Origin: an uncultured Bacteroidota bacterium
GTDB lineage: Bacteria; Bacteroidota; Bacteroidia; Bacteroidales; B18-G4
Direction: 5' to 3'
Assembly: GCA_963793485.1 (NCBI GenBank)
Contig: CAWCAB010000001.1
Location: forward strand, 270,534-334,533
DNA: 64,000 nucleotides
Both the position numbers and the translations under genes were made by a program. Below are positions 3,855 to 60,912 of this stretch, piece by piece (position 1 is the first letter of the stretch; each line of letters starts with the position of its first letter). Under the pieces are notes generated by a model. That model did not search any database. It was given only the letters and a program-made list of their open reading frames with translations, and was not told the DNA's origin.

Positions 3855-4577
3855 TTGAAAACACTCATCATCATACCGGTATACAATGAATCAGCCAGCA
3901 TAGGAGGGATCCTGGATGAGATTGCCGAAACTTTCCCCCAATATGATATGCTGGTGGTGAATGATGCCAGTACCGACGAGAGCGGTCGAATAGCAGCAGC
4001 CAATGGCAATGCTGTAGTCGTGAACCTGCCATTCAACCTGGGAATAGGAGGGGCGGTCCAGACCGGCTTCAAGTATGCCAGGGAAAATGACTATGAAATT
4101 GCCCTTCAGTTCGATGGAGACGGGCAGCACCAGGTAACGGAGATTAGTAAACTAATTCCTGTGATCGAAGAAGGGAAGGCGGATGTTGTGATTGGTTCAC
4201 GTTTCAATAAGAAAACCGAAGGTTTTACGACCCATTCTTTGCGTCGTGTCGGCATATGGATCTTCCAGTGGTTTAGCTATCTGATGATCGGACAGAAGAT
4301 CACAGACCATACATCCGGATTCAGGGCTTATAACCGAAGATCGTTCTGCTTCCTGGCCAATCATTATCCTACTGATTATCCGGAGCCGGAAGTGGTTATA
4401 CTGCTGGGCCGAAACCATTTTGTGATTACAGAGGTCTTTACTCAGATGCTTCGCCGCCAGGGAGGTGTGTCTTCCATACCTGTTGCGAAAGGGCCTTACT
4501 ATATGGTTAAGGTCTTGCTCGCCATGTTCATGGCTTCTATCAGATCAAGGATCATCACGGATGATGAAAAACTATAA
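3855..4577 (+). CDS. family-2 glycosyltransferase, polyprenyl-phosphate sugar synthase type (GtrB/DPM1-like)
   Basis: TTG start. GT2 motifs IIIPVYNES, VVNDASTDES, QFDGDGQH and VVIGSRF. Confidence 0.85.
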   Translation: MKTLIIIPVYNESASIGGILDEIAETFPQYDMLVVNDASTDESGRIAAANGNAVVVNLPFNLGIGGAVQTGFKYARENDYEIALQFDGDGQHQVTEISKLIPVIEEGKADVVIGSRFNKKTEGFTTHSLRRVGIWIFQWFSYLMIGQKITDHTSGFRAYNRRSFCFLANHYPTDYPEPEVVILLGRNHFVITEVFTQMLRRQGGVSSIPVAKGPYYMVKVLLAMFMASIRSRIITDDEKL

Positions 4578-4579
4578 TT

Positions 4580-4951
4580 ATGGGAGAAATCAGCCAAATA
4601 CAGATCGTTGCCGTAATAGTGAGTATCTCACTGTTTCTTTTTATCATGTATCTGATAAGAAGCCAGCGGCTGAAGGAGGAGTATTCACTTTTGTGGATAT
4701 TCTTTAGCCTGGTATTTATAGTATTCGCCTTCTGGAGAAGTGGTCTCGATTACATTTCTGATTTTCTGGGCGTAGCCTATCCGCCGGCAGCCCTGTTTAT
4801 GATCCTCCTCATGGCTATCTTCTTGATCCTGATCGAGTTCTCAATGATCATTAGTAAGCTGTCAGATAAAAACAAGTCACTTGCACAGGAAATAGGATTG
4901 CTTAAGCAAAGACTTAGGAAGATCGAAGAACGAGGATCGAGTAACGAGTAA
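4580..4951 (+). CDS. small membrane protein, DUF2304-like
   Basis: 123 aa with about 3 TM helices plus a coiled C-terminal tail. Starts 2 nt after the GT2 stop. The last codons (EERGSSNE*) are encoded by the heptamer array. Confidence 0.6.
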   Translation: MGEISQIQIVAVIVSISLFLFIMYLIRSQRLKEEYSLLWIFFSLVFIVFAFWRSGLDYISDFLGVAYPPAALFMILLMAIFLILIEFSMIISKLSDKNKSLAQEIGLLKQRLRKIEERGSSNE

Positions 4952-5028
4952 CGAACACCAGTATCCATTATCTATTATCTAGGATCTAGGATCCAGTATC
5001 CAGTATCTAGGATCCAGTATCCAGGATC
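4924..5028. repeat. heptanucleotide tandem array, 15 in-phase units
   Basis: cgaagaa cgaggat cgagtaa cgagtaa cgaacac cagtatc cattatc tattatc taggatc taggatc cagtatc cagtatc taggatc cagtatc caggatc. Spans both convergent stop codons (4949-4951 and 5007-5009). Confidence 0.95.
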
Positions 5029-6104
5029 TCATCATACAACTCAACGTATTGCTTCACAGTATCCTCAAAGTGAAACTTCCTGATCGGACTGTTTTCCCAT
5101 TTACCAGCGTAAGCTATTTCGAGGGCATCTTTTAAGCCTTTTCCGTCCTGCGTTTTCATTATGATATATTGGCCCGAGACAACCTCTTTCAGGGCACCTC
5201 GGCCGGATGAGATAAGGGGTATGCCCATGGCAATAGATTCTGCGGCAGCAAAGCAGAAACCTTCACTGTATGATGGAATCATAACACAGGAGGATGAGAG
5301 CAAAGCTTGTTGAAGCTCATCGTAGCTCAGGTTATGGAGTAGCGTAAAGCGATCTTCCGGGATGCTTTGCAATTCCTTTTTGATTGTTCTCAAAAACCCT
5401 TTTGGGCGTGTGGGGATGATCATTTTTAAGTGGGCATCGGGATGCTGCTCAAGGAAAGCAGGTGCAGCTTCCAGGATGAGGTCTAGTCCTTTTGAAATGC
5501 CCAGGCGGCCGAAGTAGGTGAATGCGAACTTCGTGGGCGGTGAATATTGGATGGTCCGAAAGTCATTATAATTCAGTCCATTATATATCCTGGTGATCTT
5601 GTCTTTCTTTATGCCTGCCTGTCTGAGGCTTTCGGCTGTATAATCCGATACAGCGATGAATCGGTGAAAGCCCAGGCGTAGGATAAACCATTCGTAGGCG
5701 TAGTAAAGACGTTTACTGATGGTTCCGGCATATGGAAGCCTGAACCAGAGTTTGCCCCAGGCTTCATGGAAGGTGATCAGAACTTTTTTACCGTATATCC
5801 ATCCGGCAAGCCTGGCCGGAAATGCGGCATTGTAAGATGTTGTGTGAATGATGTCACAGTTTTTAGCTTCACGGAGCATGCCAAAGATCCCAAAGAAGGT
5901 AAAAACAAAACGGGAAGATACATTGAGACGTTTAACTTCAACGCCGTTGATGATCTCTTTTTTTGGCAGTTCTTTACTAAAACGTGTGGTGATCACTTTT
6001 ACCGAATGGCCTTCTTCGACAAGCTTTTCAGCAAGCGATTTGAACAGCTTCTCAATACCCCCTATGTTGGGGTAATACAGCTCGAGTATGAACAGTATTT
6101 TCAT
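5007..6104 (-). CDS. glycosyltransferase family 4 (group 1)
   Basis: 365 aa. GT4-type PSYSEGFCFAAAESIAMGIPLI motif. The start overlaps the upstream GT4 stop in an ATGA overlap at 6101-6104. Confidence 0.85.
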   Translation of the reverse strand: MKILFILELYYPNIGGIEKLFKSLAEKLVEEGHSVKVITTRFSKELPKKEIINGVEVKRLNVSSRFVFTFFGIFGMLREAKNCDIIHTTSYNAAFPARLAGWIYGKKVLITFHEAWGKLWFRLPYAGTISKRLYYAYEWFILRLGFHRFIAVSDYTAESLRQAGIKKDKITRIYNGLNYNDFRTIQYSPPTKFAFTYFGRLGISKGLDLILEAAPAFLEQHPDAHLKMIIPTRPKGFLRTIKKELQSIPEDRFTLLHNLSYDELQQALLSSSCVMIPSYSEGFCFAAAESIAMGIPLISSGRGALKEVVSGQYIIMKTQDGKGLKDALEIAYAGKWENSPIRKFHFEDTVKQYVELYDEILDTGS

Positions 6105-7260: not shown

Positions 7261-7393
7261 ATTAGGCCTTAGGCATTGGGCTGCGGTCAATAGGCGGTTG
7301 ACAGTTGACGGTAGACACTAGGCATATTAACCATTTATCCAGCATCCTGCAACCAGCATCTAGGATCTAGGATCCAGGATCCAGGATCCAGCA
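7261..7393. repeat. heptanucleotide tandem array, 19 in-phase units
   Basis: attaggc cttaggc attgggc tgcggtc aataggc ggttgac agttgac ggtagac actaggc ... tctagga tctagga tccagga tccagga tccagca. Lies in a divergent promoter region. Confidence 0.95.
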
Positions 7394-7512
7394 ACCCGTC
7401 CGGGTGTCAAAATTTTGAATTTGAAAAATAATTCCCTATCTTTCGGGCGAACAAAGGTTTTACATAGTAAAATATGTGAGATTTTTGTAAGGGATAACCT
7501 AAATCTTGAATT

Positions 7513-9658: not shown

Positions 9659-10411
9659 ATGAAAAAAACAATCATTTTTATCGTTTTGATCCTGCTGCTT
9701 ATCGCAGCCTGTGCATATTATAATTGCATGCAAAAGGAGAAATTCGAAATGGAAAAGAAAGAGGCAGTAGCTGCAGCAGTCCAGCATACACTCGATTCTA
9801 TCAATCAACACAAGGCCCTGGAAGCACCAAAACAGGTAGTTCAGGCGCACAAGTCCGAACCACCACCACCTCCTCCTGCTAAAAAGAAGGAAGTTAAGAC
9901 AAAGCCTGAAGTTGAGCCTGACGTACTACTTGATAAACGTGACGGACAGGAATATACCATCTTTGAAGACGGAAATGAAAATTGGTGGATGGCGCAGAAC
10001 CTGAATTTTGCTACACCCGGATCCTGGTGCTATGACCTGGATGATGCCAAATGTGCCGAATGGGGAAGGCTGTATACCTGGGATGAAGCCATGATGGCCT
10101 GCCCGGAAGGATGGCATTTACCAAACGACCAGGAATGGTCAGCACTGATCAATTACTATGGCGGGATACACAATGCAGGTAAAAACCTGAAGCCCGGCGG
10201 CGCATCTGAATTCAATGCCCAGTATAGTGGTTATCGTGACAAAGATGGCTTTTTCGGTAAGATCAATGAAAGTGCCTATTACTGGTCTTCTACAGATCAA
10301 AATGCCGATTATGCAAGCTTTAAAGGCCTGTATCATACCGTCGATAATGTAGGAACCTATACTTACACTAAACCAGATGGTATGTCGGTGAGGTGTGTGA
10401 AAGATAAGTAG
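9659..10411 (+). CDS. FISUMP (Fibrobacter succinogenes major paralogous domain) protein with Pro/Lys-rich linker
   Basis: 250 aa. N-terminal anchor, a PPPPPPAKKKEVKTKPE linker, then WMAQNLNF...CPEGWHLPNDQEWSALI...YWSST...VRCVKD, typical of TIGR02145-type domains. Confidence 0.8.
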   Translation: MKKTIIFIVLILLLIAACAYYNCMQKEKFEMEKKEAVAAAVQHTLDSINQHKALEAPKQVVQAHKSEPPPPPPAKKKEVKTKPEVEPDVLLDKRDGQEYTIFEDGNENWWMAQNLNFATPGSWCYDLDDAKCAEWGRLYTWDEAMMACPEGWHLPNDQEWSALINYYGGIHNAGKNLKPGGASEFNAQYSGYRDKDGFFGKINESAYYWSSTDQNADYASFKGLYHTVDNVGTYTYTKPDGMSVRCVKDK

Positions 10412-10412
10412 C

Positions 10413-10489
10413 TAAGAGGAATGAAGACCGAGGAACGAAGACCGAGGAACGAGTAACGAATAACGAATAACGAGTAACGAGTAACGATT
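10413..10489. repeat. heptanucleotide tandem array, 11 units
   Basis: taagagg aatgaag accgagg aacgaag accgagg aacgagt aacgaat aacgaat aacgagt aacgagt aacgatt. Starts 2 nt after the stop at 10409-10411. Confidence 0.95.
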
Positions 10490-10501
10490 GTATCTTGTTA
10501 T

Positions 10502-10891
10502 CTACTGTTTATGCCCTTCGAAATCGCCGCTGGTATTATCCTCCAGTTCTTCCCAGCTTCCGGAAACTTCGTAATGACCGGTGATGAGCCCGGCCAGCAG
10601 TATTTCAGGTCCCGAAAAGGCGAAGATCCCTTGCTCGTTAAGGGTAACAATACGAGAATAGGTTGAGTTGTCAGAATCAGATGTAACAAACATCTCGAAC
10701 TGGAAACTGTTCACGATAGTGAAGGTCCATGTGCCTGTGTCGTCCCCGCTATATGTTCCGGCATATATTCCCTGGTAGGGCAGGAGCCAGGTTGGGGTTA
10801 CATTTGGATCAGGCTCTTCCTCTTTACATGCAATGGTGATCATGGCCAATATCATAAACATTGCCAGCATTCTAGTGATGATCTTTTTCAT
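10502..10891 (-). CDS. hypothetical lipoprotein
   Basis: The likely start is MKKIITRML (ATG at 10889-10891) rather than the ORF-track start at 10918. Lipobox ITIA-C followed by KEEEPD. Confidence 0.55.
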   Translation of the reverse strand: MKKIITRMLAMFMILAMITIACKEEEPDPNVTPTWLLPYQGIYAGTYSGDDTGTWTFTIVNSFQFEMFVTSDSDNSTYSRIVTLNEQGIFAFSGPEILLAGLITGHYEVSGSWEELEDNTSGDFEGHKQ

Positions 10892-11022
10892 AACAATTAG
10901 GTTATTTGGTTTCCCCAATACAGGAAATTAAGAAATTCTTAAATTTTTTGTTGACAGATCCCTAAAAACTTTTCGACAGCCACCAGCCACCAGCTCCCAG
11001 CAAACAGAATTCCCGAACTCTC

Positions 11023-16449: not shown

Positions 16450-17817
16450 ATGAAAACAAAATTACTTCTGTTACTTACATTTATGATTTATGTAAACACC
16501 CATGCTCAATTCGGCCCACAACAAATTATAACAACAAATGCAGTTGGGGCAATATCAGTTTACGCCACAGATATCGACGGAGATGGCGATATGGATGTGC
16601 TTTCTGCTTCTCAAAATGATGATAAAATAGCCTGGTATGAAAATACCGATGGCCAAGGAAGTTTTGGCTCGCAACAGATTATAACAATAAACGCAGATAA
16701 AGCAATATCGGTTTACGCCACAGATATCGACGGAGATGGCGATGTGGATGTGCTTTCTGCTTCTCAAAATGATGATAAAATAGCCTGGTATGAAAATATC
16801 GACGGAGAAGGTAATTTTGGTTCACAACAAATCATTACAACAAATGCAGATTATGCAGGATCTGTATACGCCACCGACATAGACGGAGATAAGGATATGG
16901 ATGTTCTTTCTGCTTCTCTTAATGATTCTAAAATAGCCTGGTATGAAAATATCGACGGACAAGGTAATTTTGGTTCACAACAAATTATAACAACAATTGC
17001 AGATGGGGCATTTTCAGTCTACACTGCCCATATAGATGGAGATGGCGATATGGATGTGCTTTCTGCCTCTTTTAATGATGGTAAGATAGCCTGGTACGAA
17101 AATACTGACGGACAAGGTAATTTTGGTTCACAACAAATCATTGCAACAAATGTAGCGGGAGCAAGACCCGTTTACGCTATTGATATAGACGGAGATGGCG
17201 ATATGGATGTGCTTTCTGCTTCTTATTATAATGATGAAATAGCCTGGTATGAAAACATTGACGGACAAGGTAATTTTGATTCGCAACAAATCATTACAAC
17301 AAATACAGATGGGGCCTATTGGGTTCATGCAAGCGATATAGACGGAGATGGCGATATGGATGTGCTTTCTGCTTCTGTTAATGATGATAAAATAGCCTGG
17401 TACGAAAATACCGATGGACAAGGGAGTTTTGGTTCACAACAAATCATTACAACAAATGCAGCTGAGGCAATGTCAGTTTACGCCACTGATATAGACGGAG
17501 ATGTTGATATAGATGTGCTTTCTGCTTCTTTTGATGATGATAAAATAGCCTGGTATGAAAATTTAACAACTTTGGCTATAAATCAAAACACATTAATAAG
17601 TTTTTCAATTTATCCAATACCAACAACAGGTGCTTTAATTGTTAAATCAAAAGCAAGCATTGCTCAAATAGAAATTTATAACAAGTTTGGTCAATTAATG
17701 ATGTCAAAATCAAACGAAAATAAGATTGATATATCTACCTTAAGTCAGGGTTTGTATTTCTGTAAAGTTAAAGATGAAAACGGTGTTTCTGGAATAAAAA
17801 AAATAGTGAGGGAATAG
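16450..17817 (+). CDS. T9SS cargo: seven-blade FG-GAP/VCBS beta-propeller protein
   Basis: 455 aa. Seven 51-aa repeats of the form FGSQQIITTNADxAxSVYATDIDGDGDMDVLSASxNDDKIAWYENTDGQGN. C-terminal T9SS CTD (FSIYPIPTTGALIV...GLYFCKVKDENGVSGIKKIVRE). Confidence 0.85.
   Translation: MKTKLLLLLTFMIYVNTHAQFGPQQIITTNAVGAISVYATDIDGDGDMDVLSASQNDDKIAWYENTDGQGSFGSQQIITINADKAISVYATDIDGDGDVDVLSASQNDDKIAWYENIDGEGNFGSQQIITTNADYAGSVYATDIDGDKDMDVLSASLNDSKIAWYENIDGQGNFGSQQIITTIADGAFSVYTAHIDGDGDMDVLSASFNDGKIAWYENTDGQGNFGSQQIIATNVAGARPVYAIDIDGDGDMDVLSASYYNDEIAWYENIDGQGNFDSQQIITTNTDGAYWVHASDIDGDGDMDVLSASVNDDKIAWYENTDGQGSFGSQQIITTNAAEAMSVYATDIDGDVDIDVLSASFDDDKIAWYENLTTLAINQNTLISFSIYPIPTTGALIVKSKASIAQIEIYNKFGQLMMSKSNENKIDISTLSQGLYFCKVKDENGVSGIKKIVRE
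16510..17575 (+). repeat. seven tandem 153-bp intragenic repeats (propeller blades)
   Basis: Long near-identical DNA stretches recur every 153 bp, e.g. gatatcgacggagatggcgatatggatgtgctttctgcttct...aaaatagcctggtatgaaaat. Confidence 0.9.
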
Positions 17818-18057
17818 TTGCATACGTTAGAGTTTCGCACGAGTGGGCTTATAGTATTAATCATCATCCCAGGTATTCTCATACACATGGTTTGATCGAA
17901 GAAAAGAGGAAAGGGAGGATTTTGTTTCAAGAGGTCTTAATTCTCTTGAAATCCCCGCCAACAGGATGACAGTTTTTGCTAAATGGGTTTGCTGGCCAGT
18001 AAGAATAGCAGCCAGTTTGGCATTGATTAGCCTTAATTTTAATTTTTCTCAGTTTTA

Positions 18058-18089
18058 TTTGTCCATAATAAATTGTTTATGTACTTTTG
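18058..18089 (+). promoter_or_regulatory. candidate Bacteroidetes sigma-A promoter upstream of tRNA-Ser
   Basis: TTTG at 18058-18061, 20 nt of spacing, then TACTTTTG (TAnnTTTG) at 18082-18089. About 90 nt upstream of the tRNA. Confidence 0.4.
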
Positions 18090-18132
18090 CCCCTCGCAAA
18101 ATAGAGGTCCGGGGATGGGGAAAGAGGCGTGA

Positions 18133-18174
18133 GGATTTTTTGGATTTTGATTTTTGGATTTTGGATTTTCCAAG
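18133..18174. repeat. heptanucleotide array immediately 5' of tRNA-Ser
   Basis: ggatttt ttggatt ttgattt ttggatt ttggatt ttccaag. Confidence 0.85.
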
Positions 18175-18177
18175 TTT

Positions 18178-18267
<90 letters not shown>

Positions 18268-18273
18268 GTAAAA

Positions 18274-18301
18274 GTTTTGGGTGTTGAGTTTTGGGTTTTG
18301 A
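18274..18301. repeat. heptanucleotide array immediately 3' of tRNA-Ser
   Basis: gttttgg gtgttga gttttgg gttttga. Confidence 0.85.
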
Positions 18302-18472: not shown

Positions 18473-18547
18473 CGGGGTATAGCGCAGTCCGGTTAGCGCA
18501 CCTGCTTTGGGAGCAGGGGGTCGTAGGTTCGAATCCTACTACCCCGA
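18473..18547 (+). tRNA. tRNA-Pro (anticodon UGG)
   Basis: Acceptor stem CGGGGTA/TACCCCG. D arm GCGC-AGTCCGGTTA-GCGC. Anticodon stem-loop CCTGC-TTTGGGA-GCAGG. T arm GTAGG-TTCGAAT-CCTAC. Discriminator A, with no encoded CCA. Confidence 0.95.
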
Positions 18548-18558
18548 CAACAAACAAA

Positions 18559-18589: not shown

Positions 18590-18658
18590 TGCCCGGAAAC
18601 TGCAAGCTTGCTTGTAAGTTTTTGGGCATGAAAAAAGACCATAAGGAGCGAAGCGAGT

Positions 18659-19172
18659 GGGCTTTTGTTTATTGTACCCCCCCCAAGGGATCAGCGAGCG
18701 AAGCGAAGCTAATCCTACCCGAGAAGTGCCTAAAGTATTGGAGTGCCTAGAGTGCCTAAAATGAAGGAGGGCCTTTTGTTGTTGTACCCCCCCCAAGGGA
18801 TCAGCGAGCGAAGCGAAGCTAATCCTACCGAGAAGTGCCTAAAGTATTGGAGTGCGCTAGAGTGCCTAAAGTTAAGCAGTGGGCTTTTGTTGTTGTACCA
18901 CCCCCCAAGGGATCAGCGAGCGAAGCGAAGCTAATCCTACCCGGGAAGTGCCTAAAGTTTGGAGTGCGCTAGAGTACTTAGAGTTTTGCGGGCTTTTGTT
19001 GTTGTACCACCCCCCAAACGGATCAGCGAGCGAAGCGAAGCTCATCCTACCGAGAAGTGCCTAAAGTACTTGGAGTGCCTAGAGTGCCTAAAATGAAGCG
19101 AGTGGGCTTTTGTTTATTGAGCCACTTCCCAAGGGATCAATTTCACGAAGTGGAGTTAATCCTACTACCCCA
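18659..19172 (+). repeat. tandem array of a ~110-nt unit (four full units of 110/112/109/114 nt plus a divergent partial fifth)
   Basis: Units start at 18659, 18769, 18881, 18990 and 19104. Consensus: gggcttttgttgttgtaccccccccaagggatcagcgagcgaagcgaagctaatcctacccgagaagtgcctaaagtattggagtgcctagagtgcctaaaatgaag. Unit lengths are not multiples of 3. Confidence 0.95.
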
Positions 19173-26073: not shown

Positions 26074-28176
26074 TTATTCAACAATCAGTTTCCGTCTGAG
26101 CCTGGTATTCTCGATACTGACCTCCACGATGTACATGCCTGTTTTTAGGTGTGAAATATCAATGCTGCCATTTACAGGTCCTGCTTGTAATATTTTTTGT
26201 CCCGTAATGCTATAAATTGACACCTCGTTTATTGTGCTTCCTTTAGCTGAAATATTAAGTTCCTGGTGTGCTGGATTGGGATAAATCCTAAGATCATTCA
26301 TGATATTATTGGATGGTACTGAAGATTGCCCGATATATACAGTAAATGAATCCATTCGCTCGGTAAAACCTGCTGAAGCAATAATTTGAATTTTTGATGA
26401 GCCTGTATTGGCCAATGCTTCGAGCGTTAAAATACTTCCATCAAGTGTTGCCTGAACTGTATCGGAACTTCCGTTGTGGTAAATTGAAAACGTTAGCGTG
26501 TCACCGACTATGGCCGGGACAGTATCTCCTTTCATGAAATGATAGTGTTCCCTCAGATCAATATTTGTTGAGTGGCCTGTGCCTTCTAAATCCAGGTTAG
26601 CAATGCGTGGGCTGTACTGAATGTAATTTGTTGCGTTGAAATCGATCACAAGCGCACTATCCTCGATTGCCCTGAAGAACTGGTTCGAGTGTACATCGAT
26701 ATATTCATCGACATGTCCTGATGGCCAGCGGATGAGCAGGGTGTCGATTACATCGGCATCACCAAGGCCAAAATGAACCGGGGTGTAAGCAAAAGCAACG
26801 TTCCCATCAATGAGGGCGATTTCCCGGGTTTGACAAACATATTTACCATCAATCATGGTTTTGGCATAAATACGCGTTCCATAGGGTGTAGCACAATTAA
26901 ACTTATCAACACATGATATTGAAATGGAAGAATTGTCATTACCTTCGTTAATATACAAATGGTTATGACCTAATGCATCGTATGCATTTCCAATGGTTAA
27001 AACATCCAGGTCACCATCATTATCGTGGTCAAATACTTTTGCTGTATGTCCTTCACCAAGGCTTAAAGTATGATTGAGCAAATTTGTAAACTGTCCATTG
27101 CCATCATTCAGGCACAGAATATTATATAGGGTTGGGGAATATAGTCCTTCGTAGGGACCTGAAAAAGGATAAGGCCCATCTTCAAGTGTGATAAACAGGT
27201 CCTGATCGCCATCATTATCCAAATCACACCAATACGATGAGATTGTAAAAGAACCTTTGTATGATTCGTCAAGTAAAATATGTTTTTCAAATTCCAGGTT
27301 GCCCAGGTTTTCGTAAAGTGCCGGCAGCAGGCCATTTATCGTATCCGGATCTTCGTGAATGACGCAAAGATCCATATCCCCATCATTATCATAGTCGACC
27401 CAGTTTACACTGGGAGTCATGGAAGTATCACTTAATGTAATATGATTTTCGTCAACTTGTTCCAGGGAATCCCCCGTGTTTATGAAAAATGCATTTTTTG
27501 CTACCTTTGAAAATCCACAATACACATCCATATCCCCGTCATTATCAGCATCGCCCCAGGCCATTGAATGCAACCAATCACTTGTTGGTCTGTTGATATT
27601 GGTAATGGTCTCTCTGTCAGGAAATTTACCATTTCCATCATTGTAAAAAACTCTTACAGTTAAGGAAAAATATAATAAGTCTAGATGTCCATCCTTATTA
27701 TAGTCCAATAAAACAGGATAAGATGAATTAAAACTGTTCTGGACATTAATACTGGTGTCGGATAAGAAATTACCATAACCGTCATTAACAAAGACACCTA
27801 TTTTGTCAAAATTAGAATTTGCTATGACATCAATATCCCCATCATTGTCAATATCGCCCATTGGGCTGGGATGAAATACCTCAAAGGCATTACTATATTC
27901 TGGTAAGAATATTTTTTGTTGTATATAAATACCTGTTCGTTCATTCTTGTATAGTGTGAGAGGAGATGCAGTAATACCAATAGCATTTTTGTTGGAGATT
28001 ATAGGATCAAGATCTCCATCATTATCAATATCAAAAAGGATTCCAGAGAATCGTGCAAGGGTACCTTGTGACTCGTAAATACTGCCTGTATCAATCCGGG
28101 TAAATTCGGGAAACTGGGCATTTAAAACGAGGAGGAAAGCAAACAGAAATAAATTGGTGATGAATAACTTTTTCAT
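26074..28176 (-). CDS. T9SS cargo: FG-GAP/VCBS repeat protein with ASPIC/UnbV-like region (CRTAC1-like)
   Basis: 700 aa. Repeated DxDxDGDxD calcium-type motifs (DIDNDGDLD, DIDNDGDID, DADNDGDMD, DYDNDGDMD, DLDNDGDQD, DHDNDGDLD). LIRWPSG motif. CTD: IYPNPAHQELNI...GMYIVEVSIENTRLRRKLIVE. Confidence 0.85.
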   Translation of the reverse strand: MKKLFITNLFLFAFLLVLNAQFPEFTRIDTGSIYESQGTLARFSGILFDIDNDGDLDPIISNKNAIGITASPLTLYKNERTGIYIQQKIFLPEYSNAFEVFHPSPMGDIDNDGDIDVIANSNFDKIGVFVNDGYGNFLSDTSINVQNSFNSSYPVLLDYNKDGHLDLLYFSLTVRVFYNDGNGKFPDRETITNINRPTSDWLHSMAWGDADNDGDMDVYCGFSKVAKNAFFINTGDSLEQVDENHITLSDTSMTPSVNWVDYDNDGDMDLCVIHEDPDTINGLLPALYENLGNLEFEKHILLDESYKGSFTISSYWCDLDNDGDQDLFITLEDGPYPFSGPYEGLYSPTLYNILCLNDGNGQFTNLLNHTLSLGEGHTAKVFDHDNDGDLDVLTIGNAYDALGHNHLYINEGNDNSSISISCVDKFNCATPYGTRIYAKTMIDGKYVCQTREIALIDGNVAFAYTPVHFGLGDADVIDTLLIRWPSGHVDEYIDVHSNQFFRAIEDSALVIDFNATNYIQYSPRIANLDLEGTGHSTNIDLREHYHFMKGDTVPAIVGDTLTFSIYHNGSSDTVQATLDGSILTLEALANTGSSKIQIIASAGFTERMDSFTVYIGQSSVPSNNIMNDLRIYPNPAHQELNISAKGSTINEVSIYSITGQKILQAGPVNGSIDISHLKTGMYIVEVSIENTRLRRKLIVE

Positions 28177-36084: not shown

Positions 36085-38265
36085 ATGAAAACTATGAACA
36101 AATTATGTGTATTTCTATTTCTTTTCTTCCTGTGTATTGCATCAGTATCAGCCCAGGATATCTATGAAGCTGTGACCAATGGTGACCTCGTCATGGTCAA
36201 AGAGATCCTGGCAGAGAATTCTGATCTCCTCAATGAAAAGAATTCAAACGATCTGACTCCCCTCAACCTGGCGTGCGAACGCGGACAGGCAGGGATAGTA
36301 GACTTTTTACTCAATCAAGGTGCCGATCCTTACCTGGGAGACAGGGAAAACTCACAGCCTATACATCTGGCTGCGATCAGTGGAAGTATTGAGTGTATGG
36401 ATCTTCTGCTTGACAAGGGGGTGGATATCAATCTTCAGGATGATTTTGGGATGACGCCATTATTATTTGCCTTGAGCCGCCGGCAAGCAGATATGGCCGG
36501 GTATATCATTGAAAGGGGAGCTGATATCGATTTGCGTGCTAATGTAGGCTGGGCACCTATCCACCTGGCTATAGTGACCAGGAGCGATGCTGTTGTCAAA
36601 CAACTACTTGAACAGGGGGCAGAGGTGAATGTATCACTGGAAACAGGCATGACCCCACTGCACAGTGCGGTTTCCTACGGGAACACTGAAATAGCCAAAC
36701 TCCTCATACAACATGGTGCTGATATTAAAGCGGAAAACAATCATGGTGAACAGCCTGTAAACATGGCATTGAACCCTAACACTTATGATGCACTTGTATA
36801 TCTGGTGGAAAAAGGTGCCGATATTAACCACTGTAATGCCAGGGGCGCACACCTTCTGCATAATATTGCCGGCAGGGGCACCGCTATTGAGAATGCCACT
36901 TTCCTGCTTGATCACGGAGCGGATGTTAATGTTCAGGATGATTTTGGCCGGACACCATTGTTCTTTACTACCTGGTCGGAGAATCCTGATTTAATGAGTA
37001 AGTTTTTGATCCTTAATGGTGCCAATGTGAATCCGGTGAATTGCAAAGATGTTCGGACAGGTGTCTGTTTTACAGATTTCAGTACGCCTTTACATGGCGC
37101 TGTCAGGCATGGTCAGCTTGAACTTGCGAAAAATCTGGTCATGAATGGCGCAAGAGTGAATGTATATAATGATGAAGGCCTGACTCCACTGCATTATGCT
37201 GTGATGAGCGGGAATCCCGAGATCGTGCAATACCTGATCGATCATGGTGCTTTTCTGAATGTACCGGAAAAAGAACTGGGAAGCACAGAATTGCATCTCT
37301 CAGTAGCCATGGGATATACTGATATTACAGATATTCTCCTGGAGCATGGTGCGGCAATGGATGTGGCCGATTATAATGGTAAGACACCTTTTGATTATGC
37401 CATGTACTATAATCATAAGGGTCTTGGATACGACCTACTGGCCAATGGTGCCGATGATTCTAAACTGGGCGAATACCTGAGTAAGCCTGATGAAGTGGCT
37501 GCGGAAGTCGCTCCCGGTGAAGCCAGGGTATGGTTCCTGGGGCATAGCGGGTGGGCTGTTAAGACTCAGAACCACTTTCTGGTCTTCGATTATTTCTGTA
37601 ACACATGGGATAGGAAACCCGACGACTCCTGCCTGGCTTCCGGTTGCATCCTTCCCGAAGAGATCAAAGACATGAATGTAACGGTCTTCAGTACCCATAG
37701 TCATGGCGATCATTATGATGCCAGGATCTTTGACTGGAAAGAGACCATTCCCGACATCGAATATGTTCTTTGCTGGAATCAGCCTACCGATGGGCATGAG
37801 TATACACTAATCCCTGTGCATGAAGAAAAAATGATTGAGGACATGAATGTTTATGTCCATCATTCAACGGACCTTGGAGGAGGTTATCTCATAGAAGTGG
37901 ATGGCCTGACCATTTTACATATGGGTGACCATGCCAACGGAGAAGACGGACTGATGGCTGAGTTCACCGATGAGATTGACATAATAAAGGAAAAGGGATA
38001 CGATATCGACATCATGTTTGCCGGTATCCGTGGCTGTAGTCTGGGGGAACCCGAACAGGTGAAAAGAGGACTTTATTATACACTTGAGAACCTTCAGCCA
38101 GAACTCTTTGTGCCCATGCATAATGGCTCACATTCATTTCAATACAAAGCTTTTGTTGAAACAGCGAAGGAGGATGGCTTTGAGATGGATATGATCTATC
38201 CGGTACACAAGGGAGATAGATTTACCTATTCGAATACAGAGAAAGAACAGATTAGCAAGCTTTGA
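36085..38265 (+). CDS. secreted ankyrin-repeat protein fused to a C-terminal metallo-beta-lactamase-fold domain
   Basis: 726 aa with a signal peptide (MKTMNKLCVFLFLFFLCIASVSAQ). About a dozen ankyrin repeats (TPLNLACERGQAGIVDFLLNQGADP...). C-terminal MBL-like FLGHSGWAV...STHSHGDHYD...LHMGDHANG...PMHNG. Confidence 0.8.
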   Translation: MKTMNKLCVFLFLFFLCIASVSAQDIYEAVTNGDLVMVKEILAENSDLLNEKNSNDLTPLNLACERGQAGIVDFLLNQGADPYLGDRENSQPIHLAAISGSIECMDLLLDKGVDINLQDDFGMTPLLFALSRRQADMAGYIIERGADIDLRANVGWAPIHLAIVTRSDAVVKQLLEQGAEVNVSLETGMTPLHSAVSYGNTEIAKLLIQHGADIKAENNHGEQPVNMALNPNTYDALVYLVEKGADINHCNARGAHLLHNIAGRGTAIENATFLLDHGADVNVQDDFGRTPLFFTTWSENPDLMSKFLILNGANVNPVNCKDVRTGVCFTDFSTPLHGAVRHGQLELAKNLVMNGARVNVYNDEGLTPLHYAVMSGNPEIVQYLIDHGAFLNVPEKELGSTELHLSVAMGYTDITDILLEHGAAMDVADYNGKTPFDYAMYYNHKGLGYDLLANGADDSKLGEYLSKPDEVAAEVAPGEARVWFLGHSGWAVKTQNHFLVFDYFCNTWDRKPDDSCLASGCILPEEIKDMNVTVFSTHSHGDHYDARIFDWKETIPDIEYVLCWNQPTDGHEYTLIPVHEEKMIEDMNVYVHHSTDLGGGYLIEVDGLTILHMGDHANGEDGLMAEFTDEIDIIKEKGYDIDIMFAGIRGCSLGEPEQVKRGLYYTLENLQPELFVPMHNGSHSFQYKAFVETAKEDGFEMDMIYPVHKGDRFTYSNTEKEQISKL

Positions 38266-38341
38266 TATGAAATATGAAATCTGAATTCTGAAATCTGATA
38301 TACCTCAAACCTCAAATATCAAATATCAGATATCAGATTTC
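38265..38341. repeat. heptanucleotide tandem array, 11 units, filling the spacer exactly from stop to stop
   Basis: atatgaa atatgaa atctgaa ttctgaa atctgat atacctc aaacctc aaatatc aaatatc agatatc agatttc. The flanking stops are at 38263-38265 (+) and 38342-38344 (-). Confidence 0.95.
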
Positions 38342-39271
38342 CTAACGTCTGTAATTAATGATGTATGTATCCAGCTCTTCTATGCTTGATTCAAAATCAA
38401 AAGCATCGTTAACGCGGAAATAATTTCCAACATCCAGTGTGGAGCCATATGCGTATTTGGCGATCTCAAGCTTATCTTCCTCAAAATCGAACTGCTCCAT
38501 GATTTGCATGACCTGGGAGCTCAGCACGCAATTCTTATCCAGGACCTGTTTAGCAAGCAATAGCTTGCTGTCGGAGAAGTCCTTGCTGGCTATAGAATGC
38601 AGTGCCATTTGAAAATCGGCATCTTCCATAGGGTAGGGGCAGCCATAGTATCCATCATAGCCTGGCAGTACATACACTACTTCTGTTGTACCACCCACGA
38701 CTGCACCTGTACTGGTCGATGTAGTGGTTGTTGTTGTAGTGCTTGTGCTCGTTGTGCTGCTTTCATTAATATTCACGTTCATGCTTACTCCGCTCATATT
38801 GGTGTTCACATTCACGTTTGTTCCTGTTCCCGGCGCTGCTACCTGGGTTGTGGTGGTGGTTGAAGTAACGCTAACTGAAGCTGCCGGTGGAGTGGTCGAA
38901 TAAACATGCACTACCTGCGTAGTCGGTGGAGGTGGAGCCTGTGCAATTGGCACTGAGTTCTGAAAACGCAATACGTACTCTCCTTTTTTATTGGCTTTTA
39001 CCATGTAAGTGTCCTGTGAGCTTCCATTCTGGTAATATATGGTCTTGTCGAGATCGGGGATCTCTCCTTCAAAGATGATCTTAAGCTTATAGCTGGGCGC
39101 TATAAGGTCTGTGATCAGAACGTTGGTTTCAGGATCTGCATTTTGCAGTACCCCATTCAGAACCACCTGAAAACGTTCACCGTTCTCAGAGAAAACGATC
39201 AGGTTTGACTTTTGTGAAAAGGCAGGAAATAGCAGTCCTGCGAGGAGTAAACTCAGTAGTACTTTTTTCAT
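38342..39271 (-). CDS. secreted DUF4476-domain protein with Thr/Ser-rich linker
   Basis: 309 aa. Signal peptide, low-complexity TSTTTTTQ...TTTTTTTSTST linker, C-terminal DFSDSKLLLAKQVL...FDFEEDKLEIAKYAY typical of DUF4476. Confidence 0.65.
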   Translation of the reverse strand: MKKVLLSLLLAGLLFPAFSQKSNLIVFSENGERFQVVLNGVLQNADPETNVLITDLIAPSYKLKIIFEGEIPDLDKTIYYQNGSSQDTYMVKANKKGEYVLRFQNSVPIAQAPPPPTTQVVHVYSTTPPAASVSVTSTTTTTQVAAPGTGTNVNVNTNMSGVSMNVNINESSTTSTSTTTTTTTSTSTGAVVGGTTEVVYVLPGYDGYYGCPYPMEDADFQMALHSIASKDFSDSKLLLAKQVLDKNCVLSSQVMQIMEQFDFEEDKLEIAKYAYGSTLDVGNYFRVNDAFDFESSIEELDTYIINYRR

Positions 39272-39385
39272 AGTTATGGATTTGGCGTTGATTTAGCTTT
39301 ACTTAAAAAAGTGTGCCAAAAATCGGAAATTCCAACAAACTATTCCTACAATTGTTTAATATGGAAAGAGTTTAAATAGATTATA

Positions 39386-39434
39386 GGTGCTGGGTGCTGG
39401 GTGCTGGGTTCTGGGCACTAGCTGTTAGTAGCAG
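39386..39434. repeat. heptanucleotide tandem array, 7 units
   Basis: ggtgctg ggtgctg ggtgctg ggttctg ggcacta gctgtta gtagcag. Confidence 0.9.
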
Positions 39435-39472: not shown

Positions 39473-40195
39473 TTAGTCCTTTATACAACGGACAGAAAAT
39501 CCAGGATGCTTTGCACCATCGTTGGTGTATAAATAGCTGTAATTATACATTATATTGCTTAGCCATGCATCTTCAGGAAAAGATTCAGACTCAGTTGCAC
39601 TCCACCACCAGGCACGGTAACCAACATCAAGAAAATCGGCAGTTTCTGCGGAAGAGTTACGATAGCCTGCCGGAAGTGCTGTAAAACCACTTGAGTTGCT
39701 TGCACCTGTATTTGGACTTTCCCAATGTGCAAAGCCTGCTTCTTTTAGTTTTCCTCCGGCTATACTATCTCCACCTAAATAGTTGGCTAGTTGTGTCCAA
39801 TCTTCAAGGGTAGGTACATGCCAACCAGTAGGAGCCAATTTCCCGGTATTTACAGCATACCAGTTGTATAATGCCCCATAGGTGTCTTTGTATGTTATAC
39901 TATTGTTGTACCAGCAATATCCAGGAGTGGTAGCCTCATACCACTGTACCCTGTCAATGATGTTAGGAATAGGAGTGCCATCCCTGTAGGTTGTCGTTTT
40001 TAGATTTTCAGTCATCCATGTTTGAGAGCCAATGATTACTGTATTGTAGGTGTTGCCATCAATGTCGGAGAGTATCCCTGGCTCTGGTCCTGTTTCTATT
40101 TCAGGTTCATCGTCTTCCGTACAAGCAGTTGACAGCGTTGTGATAAATACAATTAAAACTAATGGGTAAATCCAAAATATTTTATGCTTTTTCAT
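39473..40195 (-). CDS. FISUMP-domain lipoprotein
   Basis: 240 aa. Lipobox LSTA-C followed by TEDDEPE. WMTENLKTT...APTGWHVPTLEDWTQLANYLGG...WWWSAT...VRCIKD. Confidence 0.8.
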   Translation of the reverse strand: MKKHKIFWIYPLVLIVFITTLSTACTEDDEPEIETGPEPGILSDIDGNTYNTVIIGSQTWMTENLKTTTYRDGTPIPNIIDRVQWYEATTPGYCWYNNSITYKDTYGALYNWYAVNTGKLAPTGWHVPTLEDWTQLANYLGGDSIAGGKLKEAGFAHWESPNTGASNSSGFTALPAGYRNSSAETADFLDVGYRAWWWSATESESFPEDAWLSNIMYNYSYLYTNDGAKHPGFSVRCIKD

Positions 40196-40378
40196 ATTAA
40201 GTAATTTAAGAGTTGGTACTCATTTTACTAAGATTTCTGTTTTGTCTGAAGGTACACAAGGGCAATGATGAGATCCGTTGTGGCTTAATTCTCTGCCTAT
40301 AAAATTAGTTAAATCCCTGACTTATTCTTGATTTATTTTTATCAAATTTAAAAAATCATGTTGTCTGCCAGATAGAAA

Positions 40379-40434
40379 CAGCCCCCAGCCCCCAGCTATC
40401 AGCCTACTGTCAACTGTCAACCGCCAACTGTCAA
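40379..40434. repeat. heptanucleotide tandem array, 8 units
   Basis: cagcccc cagcccc cagctat cagccta ctgtcaa ctgtcaa ccgccaa ctgtcaa. Confidence 0.9.
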
Positions 40435-40455
40435 CTTCTTACTATATTTGTAATA

Positions 40456-41874: not shown

Positions 41875-43207
41875 ACATTGCATGTATCCTGTTCTGGCTA
41901 TCCTATTTATAGGGATGGGGATGGTGTCATATGCACAGGATACTACTGCCGTGAAGAAAGGCTGGTCTATTGTGCCTTTTCCTGTGCTGGGCTATGATGC
42001 CGACATGGGATTCCAGTTTGGAGCCCTGGGCAGTGCCTTCTACTATGGTGATGGCTCCACTTATCCAGAATACCTGCATTCCATTTATGCGGAGGCCTCC
42101 TGGTTCACGAAGGGGAGTGCAGTGTATCAACTGTTTTACGATTCCAAGCATTTGCTTCCATGGAACATCAGGATCACCGCCGACTTTGCTTACCTGACTG
42201 AAAAGGCGCTGGATTTTTATGGTTTTAACGGCTACCAGTCAGCTTACCATCCTGAACTGGAGGATGATGGATCCGATGACTATATTTCAAGGGTCTATTA
42301 CCGCCAGGAGAGGAAGCTTTTTCGTACCGTCATCGATCTGCAGGGGAATCTTGCCGGTCCAAAAATCAGGTGGATAGCAGGTTTCAGCCTCTTCGATATC
42401 CGGACAGCAACAGTGGATGTAGAGAATATCAACAAAGGCAAGAAAGAGAGTAAGATGCTGCCCGATACGACTTTATTGTATGATTATTATGTAGATTGGG
42501 GACTGATTGAGGAGGACGAGAAGAATGGGGGGAGCACCAAGATGATCAAAGTTGGACTGGTCTTCGATTCGCGCGACAATGAACCTGCACCAAACCGGGG
42601 CGTATGGTCGGAAGTATTATTCCTGACGGCGCCCGGCTTCATGGGCAACAAACCATATGCTTTCAATAAGCTGGCAATTACGCATCGTCAATACATCAGT
42701 ATTGTTAAAAACAAATTGGTTTTTGCCTATCGCCTCAGCATGCAAACTACCATTGGTAAGCAGGCTCCTTATTATATCCTTCCATATCAGTTCAGTTCTT
42801 TTACCAAAACCACTAAGCCTGATGGCCTTGGCGGTTCCAACACCATTCGTGGAGTACTGCGTGACCGTATTGTTGGAGATGGTACTGCATACGGCAATCT
42901 TGAAATCCGTTGGAAGTTCCTGAAAACCATACTGTTTAATCAGAATCTCTACCTGGCAGTATATGCTTTTTATGATGCCGGACAGGTGATCCGCGAAAGA
43001 GATTTGGACATGAGTATGGTGCCTCCTGAAGATATGACATCAGGCAACTATTTCGACCAAAAGAATGATGGCCTGCACCAGGGCCTCGGACTGGGCTTAC
43101 GCGTTGGGCTGAATGAAAACTTCGTACTGGTGGTCGATTATGGCCGCGCCCTGGATAGGAGGGATGGGGTTTCGGGGCTGTATATTGGCGTAGGAAACAT
43201 TTTTTAG
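41861..43207 (+). CDS. outer-membrane beta-barrel protein, Omp85/surface-antigen-like barrel without obvious POTRA domains
   Basis: 448 aa. Signal peptide, alternating beta-strand pattern, terminal aromatic (GLYIGVGNIF). Overlaps the symporter gene by 14 nt. Confidence 0.5.
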   Translation: MKKLKHCMYPVLAILFIGMGMVSYAQDTTAVKKGWSIVPFPVLGYDADMGFQFGALGSAFYYGDGSTYPEYLHSIYAEASWFTKGSAVYQLFYDSKHLLPWNIRITADFAYLTEKALDFYGFNGYQSAYHPELEDDGSDDYISRVYYRQERKLFRTVIDLQGNLAGPKIRWIAGFSLFDIRTATVDVENINKGKKESKMLPDTTLLYDYYVDWGLIEEDEKNGGSTKMIKVGLVFDSRDNEPAPNRGVWSEVLFLTAPGFMGNKPYAFNKLAITHRQYISIVKNKLVFAYRLSMQTTIGKQAPYYILPYQFSSFTKTTKPDGLGGSNTIRGVLRDRIVGDGTAYGNLEIRWKFLKTILFNQNLYLAVYAFYDAGQVIRERDLDMSMVPPEDMTSGNYFDQKNDGLHQGLGLGLRVGLNENFVLVVDYGRALDRRDGVSGLYIGVGNIF

Positions 43208-43208
43208 T

Positions 43209-43250
43209 CATATATCATATAGCATTGAGCATTGAACATGTAGCATTTAG
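43209..43250. repeat. heptanucleotide array (left arm flanking the four-helix-bundle gene)
   Basis: catatat catatag cattgag cattgaa catgtag catttag. Confidence 0.9.
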
Positions 43251-44543: not shown

Positions 44544-45167
44544 ATGAAAAGAATAATAATACTATCACTGATCATATTAGCCACTGCCGGAACTGCTTCT
44601 TCGCAGTCAATCTTTAGTTTAGCCTATGAGCCATCTACTCCGCTGGGTGATATGAAAAACTTTATCAGCCCGACCAGCCTTCGCGGATTAAGTGCCTCTG
44701 CCGACTGGTATCTGAATAAGAGGCTTACTGTAGGAGGTACTCTGCAATGGACCGGATTCTACGAAAAAGATGAAAGGTACACCTGGATATTCGATGATGG
44801 GGCTGTTACTGCCACTGCATGGAAGGAGTTTTATCTGATTTCTATCCTGGCAAATGTCAAATACTATTTTAATGATGACGATGGGAGCTTATTTGCTCCT
44901 TATGTAGGCCTTGGAGTAGGGACAATGTATGTCGATCAAAATGCCCAGGTGGGTACTTATGAATTTGATGATAAGTCATGGAAATTTGCCATTGCACCTG
45001 AAGTCGGGACACGCCTGCCTCTGGGACTTGAAAAAACCTGGGGACTTAACTTCAAGATCAGATACCAGATGGCATTTTATGACAAAAATGATATCAACCT
45101 CCTGAACTTCCTCAACTATAGTGTAGGAGTTTACTGGAAACTATATAAGCGAGGGGAAAGATATTAG
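44544..45167 (+). CDS. outer-membrane beta-barrel protein
   Basis: 207 aa. Signal peptide and alternating hydrophobic beta-strand pattern. Confidence 0.5.
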   Translation: MKRIIILSLIILATAGTASSQSIFSLAYEPSTPLGDMKNFISPTSLRGLSASADWYLNKRLTVGGTLQWTGFYEKDERYTWIFDDGAVTATAWKEFYLISILANVKYYFNDDDGSLFAPYVGLGVGTMYVDQNAQVGTYEFDDKSWKFAIAPEVGTRLPLGLEKTWGLNFKIRYQMAFYDKNDINLLNFLNYSVGVYWKLYKRGERY

Positions 45168-45267
45168 ATTAGTGAATAGTGACTAGTACCTAGTTCCTAG
45201 TACCTAGTTCCTAGTACCTAGTTCCTAATTACTAATTACTAATTACTAATGACTAATGACTAATGCC
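45163..45267. repeat. heptanucleotide tandem array, 15 in-phase units
   Basis: attagat tagtgaa tagtgac tagtacc tagttcc tagtacc tagttcc tagtacc tagttcc taattac x3 taatgac x2 taatgcc. Contains the + stop (45165-45167) and the hydF stop plus its last codons (45253-45267). Confidence 0.95.
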
Positions 45268-46464
45268 TAAAAACGGCTCCATCGCTCTTTCATAAATACC
45301 ATTTGTATAAGCAATGGTCATACCATAATTGCTAACAGGCACACCGGCATTGATAACATCTGCCAGACGGTTGCTCAGTTGCTTTCGGGTGATCATGCAG
45401 CCTCCGCATTGTATCGCTAATGAATAGTCTTTGACAGGCCTGGGAAATTCGTCCAGTCCGGCAACAATGTCAAAATGTATGTCCTTCCCGCTAAATTCTT
45501 TCAGCCATGCCGGGATCTTATGCCTTCCGATATCATCACAGTTTACCTGGTGCGTGCATGATTCCAATATGAGTACCCTGTCACCATCGTTGAGTTTTCC
45601 CAGGGCAGGAGTACCTTCCATATAAGCATTGAAATCACCTTTTCTGCTCGCCAGAAGGATGCTGAATCCCGTCAGGGGAATATCCCTGGGAACGATCTTA
45701 TCCATCTTATGGAACATCTGGCTGTCGGTGATAGCCAGACGTGGTTTGATTCCTGTATTTTTAAGGAATTCTTCCACCTCTGTTTCCTTCAAAACAATAT
45801 TTATACAATCATTGTCGAGTACATCTCTGATGGCCTGAACCTGAGGCAGGATCATCCTTCCTTCAGGAGCTTCAAGGTCAATAGGGGTGATCAGCATAAC
45901 TATGTCGCCGGGATTAAGGATATTACCAAGCAGGGAAGTGCTGGTATATGCTGATTTGGGCATCAAGCCGGTAATTGTTTCAATCAACTTCTCATAACCC
46001 ATTTCATTAAAACAACTGAATTCAATAATTTCAGTGCTATATTCTCCTTTGATATAGTTTTTAAGAGTATAGTTCAGCGGATTTTTATCCGACTTGTTGT
46101 GTACAAATAGGAAAGGGATGTTGTAATGATTGAACTGATTTGCCAGTTCTTTCTCATATTTCCCGGTCTTATTATCCGTGATCACAATAATGGCCATGTC
46201 GATGGCTTTGATCACCTGCAAACTCTTCTTAACCCTGAGTTTGCCCAGGTCACCATGATCATCTATCCCAGCAGTGTCGATGAGGATGGCAGGCCCTATG
46301 CCGAAGATCTCCACCGATTTCTTAACAGGATCAGTTGTGGTCCCCGCCTGTTCTGAGACGATGGCAGTATCCTGTCCTGCAATAGCATTGATCAAAGAGC
46401 TTTTTCCATTGTTCCTTCTCCCAAAGATCCCAATGTGCGGCTTATTTTCCCTTCCTTTTTTCAT
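45253..46464 (-). CDS. hydF: [FeFe]-hydrogenase H-cluster maturation GTPase HydF
   Basis: 403 aa. G1 GRRNNGKSS, G3 DTAG, NKSD. C-terminal Cys cluster (CTHQVNCDDIGR...QCGGC). Confidence 0.9.
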   Translation of the reverse strand: MKKGRENKPHIGIFGRRNNGKSSLINAIAGQDTAIVSEQAGTTTDPVKKSVEIFGIGPAILIDTAGIDDHGDLGKLRVKKSLQVIKAIDMAIIVITDNKTGKYEKELANQFNHYNIPFLFVHNKSDKNPLNYTLKNYIKGEYSTEIIEFSCFNEMGYEKLIETITGLMPKSAYTSTSLLGNILNPGDIVMLITPIDLEAPEGRMILPQVQAIRDVLDNDCINIVLKETEVEEFLKNTGIKPRLAITDSQMFHKMDKIVPRDIPLTGFSILLASRKGDFNAYMEGTPALGKLNDGDRVLILESCTHQVNCDDIGRHKIPAWLKEFSGKDIHFDIVAGLDEFPRPVKDYSLAIQCGGCMITRKQLSNRLADVINAGVPVSNYGMTIAYTNGIYERAMEPFLGISH

Positions 46465-47567: not shown

Positions 47568-47577
47568 ATCTGCTTCT

Positions 47578-52576: not shown

Positions 52577-52628
52577 TATTCCCTGTTCGTTATTCATATT
52601 CTTGTTCCTTGTTCCTTGTTCTTGATTC
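52573..52628. repeat. heptanucleotide array inside the hydrogenase operon (between the hydA stop and the sensor-kinase start)
   Basis: tcattat tccctgt tcgttat tcatatt cttgttc cttgttc cttgttc ttgattc. Confidence 0.9.
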
Positions 52629-54352: not shown

Positions 54353-54374
54353 TTCTCTATTCTTTAAGCGGTTC

Positions 54375-60822: not shown

Positions 60823-60912
60823 GTGAGTAAGGAGTAAACCGAATACCGAAGAACGAAGAACGAACACCGAAGATTAACTTCAGATTTCAGATATCAGGTA
60901 TCAGATATCAAA
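60822..60912. repeat. heptanucleotide tandem array, 13 units, filling the convergent spacer
   Basis: ggtgagt aaggagt aaaccga ataccga agaacga agaacga acaccga agattaa cttcaga tttcaga tatcagg tatcaga tatcaaa. Confidence 0.95.

Follow-up and report, generated by a model that had tools for sequence, protein, structure and literature searches.

The extragenic palindromes of enterobacteria, REP and BIME, consist of palindromic units of about 35 nt and lie behind stop codons and between convergent genes. STRR sequences, whose consensus units are CCCCAGT, TTGGTCA and CAACAGT, are found in filamentous heterocystous cyanobacteria. Such a cyanobacterial repeat has been cited for Calothrix PCC 7601 (PMC4692102). 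The heptanucleotide repeats of Xanthomonas (GGGAATC) and Nostoc (GGGGAYT) tend to lie within 50 bp of stop codons or to overlap them, and are found as inverted pairs (Rehm et al. 2015, PMC4692102). Another family, the TAACTGA direct repeats, is known from the Beggiatoaceae, Cyanobacteria and five Bacteroidetes (MacGregor 2015, PMC4679880). In the forward direction this unit carries stops in all three frames, so that its overlap with genes is limited to their last codons, and in reverse it is translated as a seven-residue repeat at protein termini (PMC4679880). Mixed assemblages of heptamers in some Bacteroidetes, and contigs that break in the repeats, are noted there too (PMC4679880). According to the account given there of a wider survey, long prokaryotic SSRs with units of 5-11 nt are longer than expected on statistical grounds, heptamers are the most abundant of them, and polymerase slippage is the proposed mechanism (Mrazek et al. 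2007 via PMC4679880).

The arrays described here come from a Bacteroidales lineage and were studied in a stretch of 64,000 nt, referred to as the window. Like the repeats of Xanthomonas and Nostoc, they are 7 nt long, dispersed, intergenic and stop-proximal or stop-overlapping, and the array at 38263-38344 resembles the inverted pairs of those genomes. The hosts differ, however, and whereas the Xanthomonas and Nostoc repeats follow a single G-rich, G-quadruplex-capable consensus and usually comprise about four units, the window holds many drifting families that are mostly not G-rich, with units such as CGAGTAA, CCAGTAT and TAGTACC that lack the G3-4 tract of G-quadruplex-forming repeats. The TAACTGA family has one unit in 2-6 copies, mostly just upstream of start codons, in contrast to the window arrays, which lie mainly behind stops at a median of about 108 nt from 5′ ends; TAACTGA dimers are absent from both strands of the window, and membership of that family is rejected. 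STRR and window arrays are both tandem heptanucleotides with many dispersed copies in non-coding DNA, but the phylum differs, the closest loci being uncultured Bacteroidales metagenome assemblies and not filamentous heterocystous cyanobacteria, and STRR membership is likewise rejected, with no dimer of the three STRR consensus units in the window. REP and BIME occupy the same genomic niche but are palindromic, unlike the array site at 4924-5028, which is made of tandem heptamers without dyad symmetry. What the window arrays do share is the character of the general heptameric or long-SSR class: their units fall within 5-11 nt, stand head to tail beyond chance expectation, are dispersed, mostly non-coding and stop-proximal, and change in copy number between relatives. 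As presented in that account, the long SSRs of Mrazek et al. are a statistical class and not a family, and the lineage of the window lies outside their survey. The repeat class is thus already known, and this is not a new kind of system; the features that set this case apart are units that are heterogeneous and drift gradually, convergent spacers that are almost completely occupied, and a clear orthologous series of genes that stop in different units.

Period 7 alone is enriched in the window. One run detector found 22 runs of this period (1034 nt) in the 64 kb, against none at periods 4-6 and 8-12, and a laxer setting returned 25 against 0-2 at other periods. TRF recovers the same arrays with 0% indels; the 19 heptamer arrays make up 1.8% of the window. 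Neighbouring units mismatch at 1.48 of seven positions on average, a value that rises steadily with distance to about 3.6 at separations of at least 10, TRF often reports higher-order periods of 14 and 21 nt, and the unit sequences of different arrays are heterogeneous, with no common motif. It is extremely improbable that the arrays or their unit counts are artefacts of assembly or sequencing. All of the short-read (Logan) contigs L001-L004, L090 and L091, which come from close relatives, do end inside arrays, within 1-20 nt of entering one, and since contigs break there, copy numbers in short-read contigs are uncertain; yet the same arrays are present in independent NCBI, ENA, JGI and Logan assemblies, their period is exact in the indel-free TRF calls, and identical DUF2304 (P0121) and HydF (P0243) products are on record on a 1.42-Mb contig.

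The locus at the centre of this study, 4924-5028, comprises 105 nt that can be read directly as in-phase heptamers across the ends of two convergent genes (Table 1). Units 1-8 are cgaagaa cgaggat cgagtaa cgagtaa cgaacac cagtatc cattatc tattatc, and units 9-15 are taggatc taggatc cagtatc cagtatc taggatc cagtatc caggatc. The original prediction, made from the sequence alone, counted them as one 15-unit array; the count of fifteen in-phase heptamers stands, but they belong to two abutting arrays, one of CGARNAA and one of CYAGKAT type, which are separate TRF entries and meet at about 4955-4958, units 5 and 6 being mismatched at five of seven positions. The 55-nt spacer from the DUF2304 stop to the GT4 stop is 100% array. 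That one array is anchored to the 3′ end of each of the two genes is part of the explanation that we favour below, and carries the same probability of about 0.78. Pfam confirms the DUF2304, GT4, HydF and OMP_b-brl assignments in the window. As a separate observation, the site is rich in GATC/GGATC (five GATC in 105 nt), as is the array at 7337-7399 (four in 63 nt), compared with a window average of 6 per kb; GATC enrichment as a general feature of the arrays was rejected, most of the others having zero GATC.

Table 1. Positions of heptamer arrays and of the genes beside them, numbered from the first letter of the window.
Feature	Position	Strand	Description
Array A	4924..4955	+	4.5 heptamers of CGARNAA type: cgaagaa cgaggat cgagtaa cgagtaa cgaa
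Array B	4956..5028	-	about 10 heptamers; CYAGKAT on the + strand, TGGATAC/TAGATCC on the GT4 sense strand
DUF2304 gene	4580..4951	+	123 aa; Pfam domain at residues 7-110
GT4 glycosyltransferase gene	5007..6104	-	365 aa; conserved core to ELY (Y357)
GAAGACC/GAGTAAC-family array	10416..10491		convergent spacer; 4 nt past the stop of 9659-10411, 10 nt before the stop of 10502-10918
Stop-to-stop spacer-filling array	38263..38344		between 36085-38265(+) and 38342-39271(-); two inverted arms
Short array	43207..43239		convergent spacer; behind the Omp85-family gene 41861-43207
Outer-membrane beta-barrel gene	44544..45167	+	ends in ERY; stop adjoins the array, out of phase
Second array, 15 heptamers	45168..45274		takes up the whole 85-nt spacer that separates the outer-membrane protein gene from hydF, extends 22 nt into hydF
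hydF	45253..46464	-	403 aa; HydF_tetramer domain (Pfam) to P397
hydE	46476-47660 / 46476-47567		from the rebuilt gene list
Spacer-filling array	60834..60912		ACCGAAG type, then TCAGATA type; between 60034-60822(+) and 60917-61534(-)

Array A codes for the final eight codons and the TAA stop of the DUF2304 gene. The reading frame closes with atc gaa gaa cga gga tcg agt aac gag taa, giving a protein that ends in KIEERGSSNE and is repeat-encoded from about residue 116. Across DUF2304 proteins that are 75-100% identical, the sequence is near-invariant up to RLKNIE, and past this point the orthologues differ in sequence and in length (118-171 aa). Many of their tails are translated heptamers with a seven-residue period: EQGTRNK(E) corresponds to (GAACAAG)3, other relatives carry EDRRPKT/EERRPNN/ENRRPSN or three copies of PPTTNHQ, and loci from JGI metagenomes add further variants. 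The unit family of array A is present at the same site in L009, L014 and L094-L098.

The effect of a change in unit number can be followed in L090, a short-read contig that ends at an array and is 91% identical to the window at the nucleotide level. Its DUF2304 is the same as that of the window through residue 115. Where the window reads aagatc gaagaa cgaggat followed by two cgagtaa units, L090 reads aagatc gaggat cgaagag cgaagaa cgaggat followed by four, with two extra units (14 nt) inside the ORF. The shifted frame runs on to a stop in a later cgagTAA unit, so that the tail ERGSSNE gives way to DRRAKNEDRVTSNE (also written KIEDRRAKNEDRVTSNE) in a protein of 130 aa, 7 aa longer. A different outcome is seen in L009, whose GT4 is 71% identical: at 4040-4230 of that locus, a 21-nt repeat of three heptamers is present four times and codes for four copies of KIEERKE, the frame is kept by this higher-order repeat, and the ORF, of 171 aa, stays open into the convergent GT4 gene, with an overlap of 44 nt. 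Repeats of other kinds are also seen at this DUF2304 3′ site, namely GAACAAG heptamers passing into in-frame hexamers (AATAAG/AATGAG)n that code for NKNKNE tails in L094 and L096, a (GA)n run in L092 and a 14-nt (ACTCAGA ACTTTGA)n array in L100.

On the opposite strand, the GT4 frame closes with gag atc ctg gat act gga tcc tag, to which array B contributes (IL)DTGS and the TAG stop; the protein ends in YDEILDTGS. In the GT4 alignment, conservation ends at LY, beyond which array-free orthologues have a variable tail of 1-15 residues, often of the form LY-x-E-[ILM]-[LT]. Because array-free orthologues carry this motif, the DEIL of the window is probably ancestral, and only DTGS (the last four codons) and the stop would be repeat-made. 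Arrays of TGGATAC type lie directly past the conserved LY in L001, L005, L007 and L009 as well, with the stops in different units: L001 (92% nucleotide identity) ends in DEILGAGY, L005 in LYQGYWILDT, followed by (ACTGGAT)n and a stop in the variant unit acttgat, L007 in MYAGY and L009 in LYKSLDT.

A second site had been read as repeating this pattern at 45163-45267, between an outer-membrane protein gene and hydF, and does so on one side. The units, at 45168-45274, drift from TAGTGAA through TAGTACC/TAGTTCC and TAATTAC to TAATGAC. HydF ends in EPFLGISH, with the codons for GISH and the stop in units taatgac/taatgcc, whereas the TAG of the outer-membrane protein (45165-45167), which had also been assigned to the array, merely adjoins it out of phase, 'attagat' matching the next unit at two of seven positions. 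The HydF core ends at EPF, and FLG is found in array-free orthologues too; to judge from this comparison, FLG is ancestral, and ISH and the TAG stop are the repeat-made part. In L088 (HydF 86% identical at the protein level) the outer-membrane protein likewise ends in ERY, and the orthologous array has the same edge units, a different interior and 12 units against 15, hydF ending in FLGVGH. L091, the only other contig for a comparison of unit numbers between independent assemblies of the same genome, ends 1 nt past the hydF stop. In the same region, a three-gene block at 39473-43207, which includes the Omp85-family gene, is present in the window and absent from L088 (6092-6436); arrays bound the block on both sides (39376-39421 and 43207-43239), and L088 has one array-rich spacer there.

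These comparisons bear on whether the gene ends might simply be ancestral, resembling the heptamers and sharing their phase by chance, with arrays that are purely intergenic. Part of what had been predicted does yield to this reading. The outermost units counted at each gene encode residues of array-free orthologues (EIL of GT4, within LY-x-E-[ILM]-[LT], and FLG of HydF, within EPFLG) and are not repeat-made, and the stop of the outer-membrane protein is out of phase. For the rest it is very improbable, as RGSSNE, DTGS and ISH did not turn up in array-free orthologues, the ORF of L090 includes additional units, and many relatives have tails with a seven-residue period; an ancestral or coincidental origin of the terminal 3-8 codons is refuted by the orthologue tails and L090. 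The original prediction that the arrays are not confined to non-coding DNA but supply last codons and stops is upheld for DUF2304, GT4 and hydF, the three genes of the window with repeat-made terminal codons. Alignment of orthologues also bears out the lineage-specific nature of these residues, conservation stopping at the array start in all three proteins, and orthologues end in different repeat units, as had been anticipated (L090 for DUF2304; L001, L005, L007 and L009 for GT4). The repeat-made part amounts to only about 3-6 codons and the stop. Of the two routes that had been proposed, growth of arrays into genes and capture of repeats by extension of an ORF, both seem to occur, and in general they are indistinguishable.

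The arrays of the window are concentrated at gene ends. The gene list used for the spacer statistics was rebuilt; it includes hydE and the gene at 52628-54394, and treats 52550-53203 as a mis-call. Arrays are present in six of the nine convergent spacers and occupy 403 of the 439 nt of these six; they account for 47% of the bases in convergent spacers as a whole, against 6-7% in tandem and divergent ones. The median gap from an array is about 4 nt to 3′ gene ends and about 108 nt to 5′ ends (Mann-Whitney p = 2e-4). The unit family of the convergent-spacer array at 10416-10491 (GAAGACC/GAGTAAC) is shared with the array at 4924-5028.

The best explanation, to which we assign a probability of roughly 0.78, is that heptanucleotide arrays driven by slippage are tolerated behind stop codons and supply variable C-terminal tails. 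The pattern suggests that slipped-strand mispairing or unequal exchange lengthens, shortens and diversifies the arrays by 7, 14 or 21 nt at a time; together with later point mutation, this would account both for mismatches that increase with distance and for the higher-order periods of 14 and 21 nt. The arrays would accumulate where they are least harmful, directly behind stop codons, which is mainly where they are found. As 7 is not divisible by 3, successive units are read in each of the three phases by any frame that runs into an array, and for the same reason a stop-containing unit ends any incoming frame within three units (seven codons); in the window, a stop is reached within at most 19 codons of array entry in any frame and on either strand. 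Gain or loss of a unit would shift the frame and move the stop to another unit, while stopless units, as seen in the window and in relatives, would be translated as seven-residue-periodic tails that end at a variant unit with a stop. The outcome visible in the genomes is a set of short, rapidly changing, repeat-encoded predicted tails beyond the conserved domains. No Pfam domain includes the repeat-made residues, and such tails are probably neutral or nearly so. Since the array gives a stop in every frame, a 14-nt gain between sister genomes can swap the tail without harm to the protein. Encroachment is seen only in genes in which a variable tail is tolerated, namely DUF2304, GT4 and hydF, and not at constrained C-termini: a terminal aromatic residue closes the beta-barrel protein, the Omp85-family protein stops at the final position of its Pfam profile, and at both genes the arrays begin exactly at or after the stop.

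The genes at the locus, GT2, DUF2304 and GT4, raise the thought of a programmed contingency locus, in which selection favours gain and loss of units as a source of C-terminal variation in envelope-glycan genes. Glycosyltransferases are classic targets of repeat-mediated variation, and unit number differs between sister genomes, but this is highly unlikely, given that hydF shows the same behaviour, that arrays flank a tRNA and many unrelated genes, that the changes are confined to residues past the Pfam domain, and that stops in every frame and a position at the extreme 3′ end leave no ON/OFF switch.

An alternative of more weight, albeit unlikely, is that the arrays are selected 3′-end elements, i.e. 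terminators, insulators of convergent transcripts, protectors of mRNA 3′ ends or platforms for a repeat-binding protein, the overlap with last codons being a tolerated by-product; it is compatible with the explanation by slippage and tolerance. The strong stop-proximal bias is equally expected of a functional 3′ element, arrays occupy nearly all of the six array-bearing convergent spacers of the nine, the array site is kept in relatives, and the Xanthomonas heptamer repeats share both the stop-proximal bias and the inverted pairs (PMC4692102). Among the convergent arrays, long dyads are found only at 38258-38350 (z = -4.8, -3.0) and 45160-45280 (z = -3.8, -3.6), but 4920-5035 folds no better than its shuffles (z = +0.2, -0.4), and the arrays at 10410 and 25935 are also without excess structure. 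The units are heterogeneous and share no motif, arrays also occur in divergent spacers, beside a start codon and to either side of a tRNA, canonical terminator-like sites with a hairpin and a T-run are found elsewhere in the window, and three relatives (L016, L017 and L019) have no array in the GT4-DUF2304 spacer. A hairpin terminator role was rejected for 4924-5028, where z is about 0 on both strands and a scan found no terminator-like site in the spacer. A strand rule of purine-rich or C-rich (Rho-utilisation-like) type was also discarded, orientation proving inconsistent on inspection of the units: TGGATAC reads along the sense strand behind GT4 but along the antisense strand behind 26074-28176. 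The array at 38263-38344 has inverted arms, ATCTGAA-type and then TCAGATA-type, and forms a long hairpin on both strands; on the folding predictions, bidirectional termination is possible at this site and at 45160-45280, in contrast to the array at 4924-5028.

A stronger version of the same idea, on which we are if anything a little more doubtful, holds that the arrays are a lineage-specific 3′-end element whose turnover systematically makes new C-termini, frame-independent stops and gene overlaps. If true, the arrays would be a genome-wide engine of gene-end evolution in this uncultured Bacteroidales clade, and the 171-aa DUF2304 of L009, with its 44-nt overlap with GT4, would be an example of an array-made gene overlap.

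The distribution of the arrays among relatives is restricted. The nearest loci come from uncultured Bacteroidales metagenome assemblies, and among GTDB species representatives GT4 is at most 72% identical. Loci with a GT4 of 55-72% identity have 11.7 nt of array per kb, at period 7 only, whereas those at 47-53% (Saprospiraceae, Chitinophagales and others) have 0.59 nt per kb, without excess over period 8; the period-7 enrichment is clade-specific. Arrays are missing from the GT4-DUF2304 spacer in some relatives, including the three named above, and this spacer measures 10, 43 and -25 nt in array-free outgroups, from which it follows that the arrays expanded a spacer that was originally short. 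The presence of units of the same family at the same site in relatives with 70-90% protein identity could reflect selection instead of inheritance and turnover.

The locus adds an uncultured Bacteroidales clade, with unusually heterogeneous units that drift along each array, to the lineages known to carry dense heptameric repeats, and offers a clean, well-controlled case of non-triplet tandem repeats reshaping gene ends. It also matters for annotation, as in such lineages the C-terminal residues, the places of stops and seeming overlaps of genes derive from repeats and are unstable, and heptamer arrays interrupt short-read assemblies.

Elsewhere in the window, the array at 52599-52630 is the only one that abuts a start codon. 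Here (CTTGTTC)x4 occupies the entire 30-nt spacer that separates the hydrogenase-like gene 52628-54394(-) from the start of 50585-52597(-) (window positions 52562-52632), and the N-terminus of the latter, MNNEQGIMNMKED, resembles degenerate NNNNGAA heptamers; start-proximal codons may thus also be array-supplied. Arrays adjoin RNA genes too, since tRNA-Ser(GCT) at 18178-18267 has a heptamer array 5 nt away on each side, (TTTTGGA)n upstream (18138-18172) and (GTTTTGG)n downstream (18273-18301); an ORF called across this tRNA (17966-18271) is spurious. In an Rfam scan, only two tRNAs scored above threshold and no array was matched. Downstream of tRNA-Pro (18473-18548), a tandem repeat with a period of 110/222 nt (18650-19139, 4.4 copies, 86% identity) contains the 9-mers AGTGCCTAG/AGTGCCTAA and has no Rfam match. 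A 153-nt (51-aa) tandem repeat of 6.8 copies at 16517-17562, inside the ORF 16450-17817, keeps the reading frame as a protein repeat and has no relation to the heptamers.
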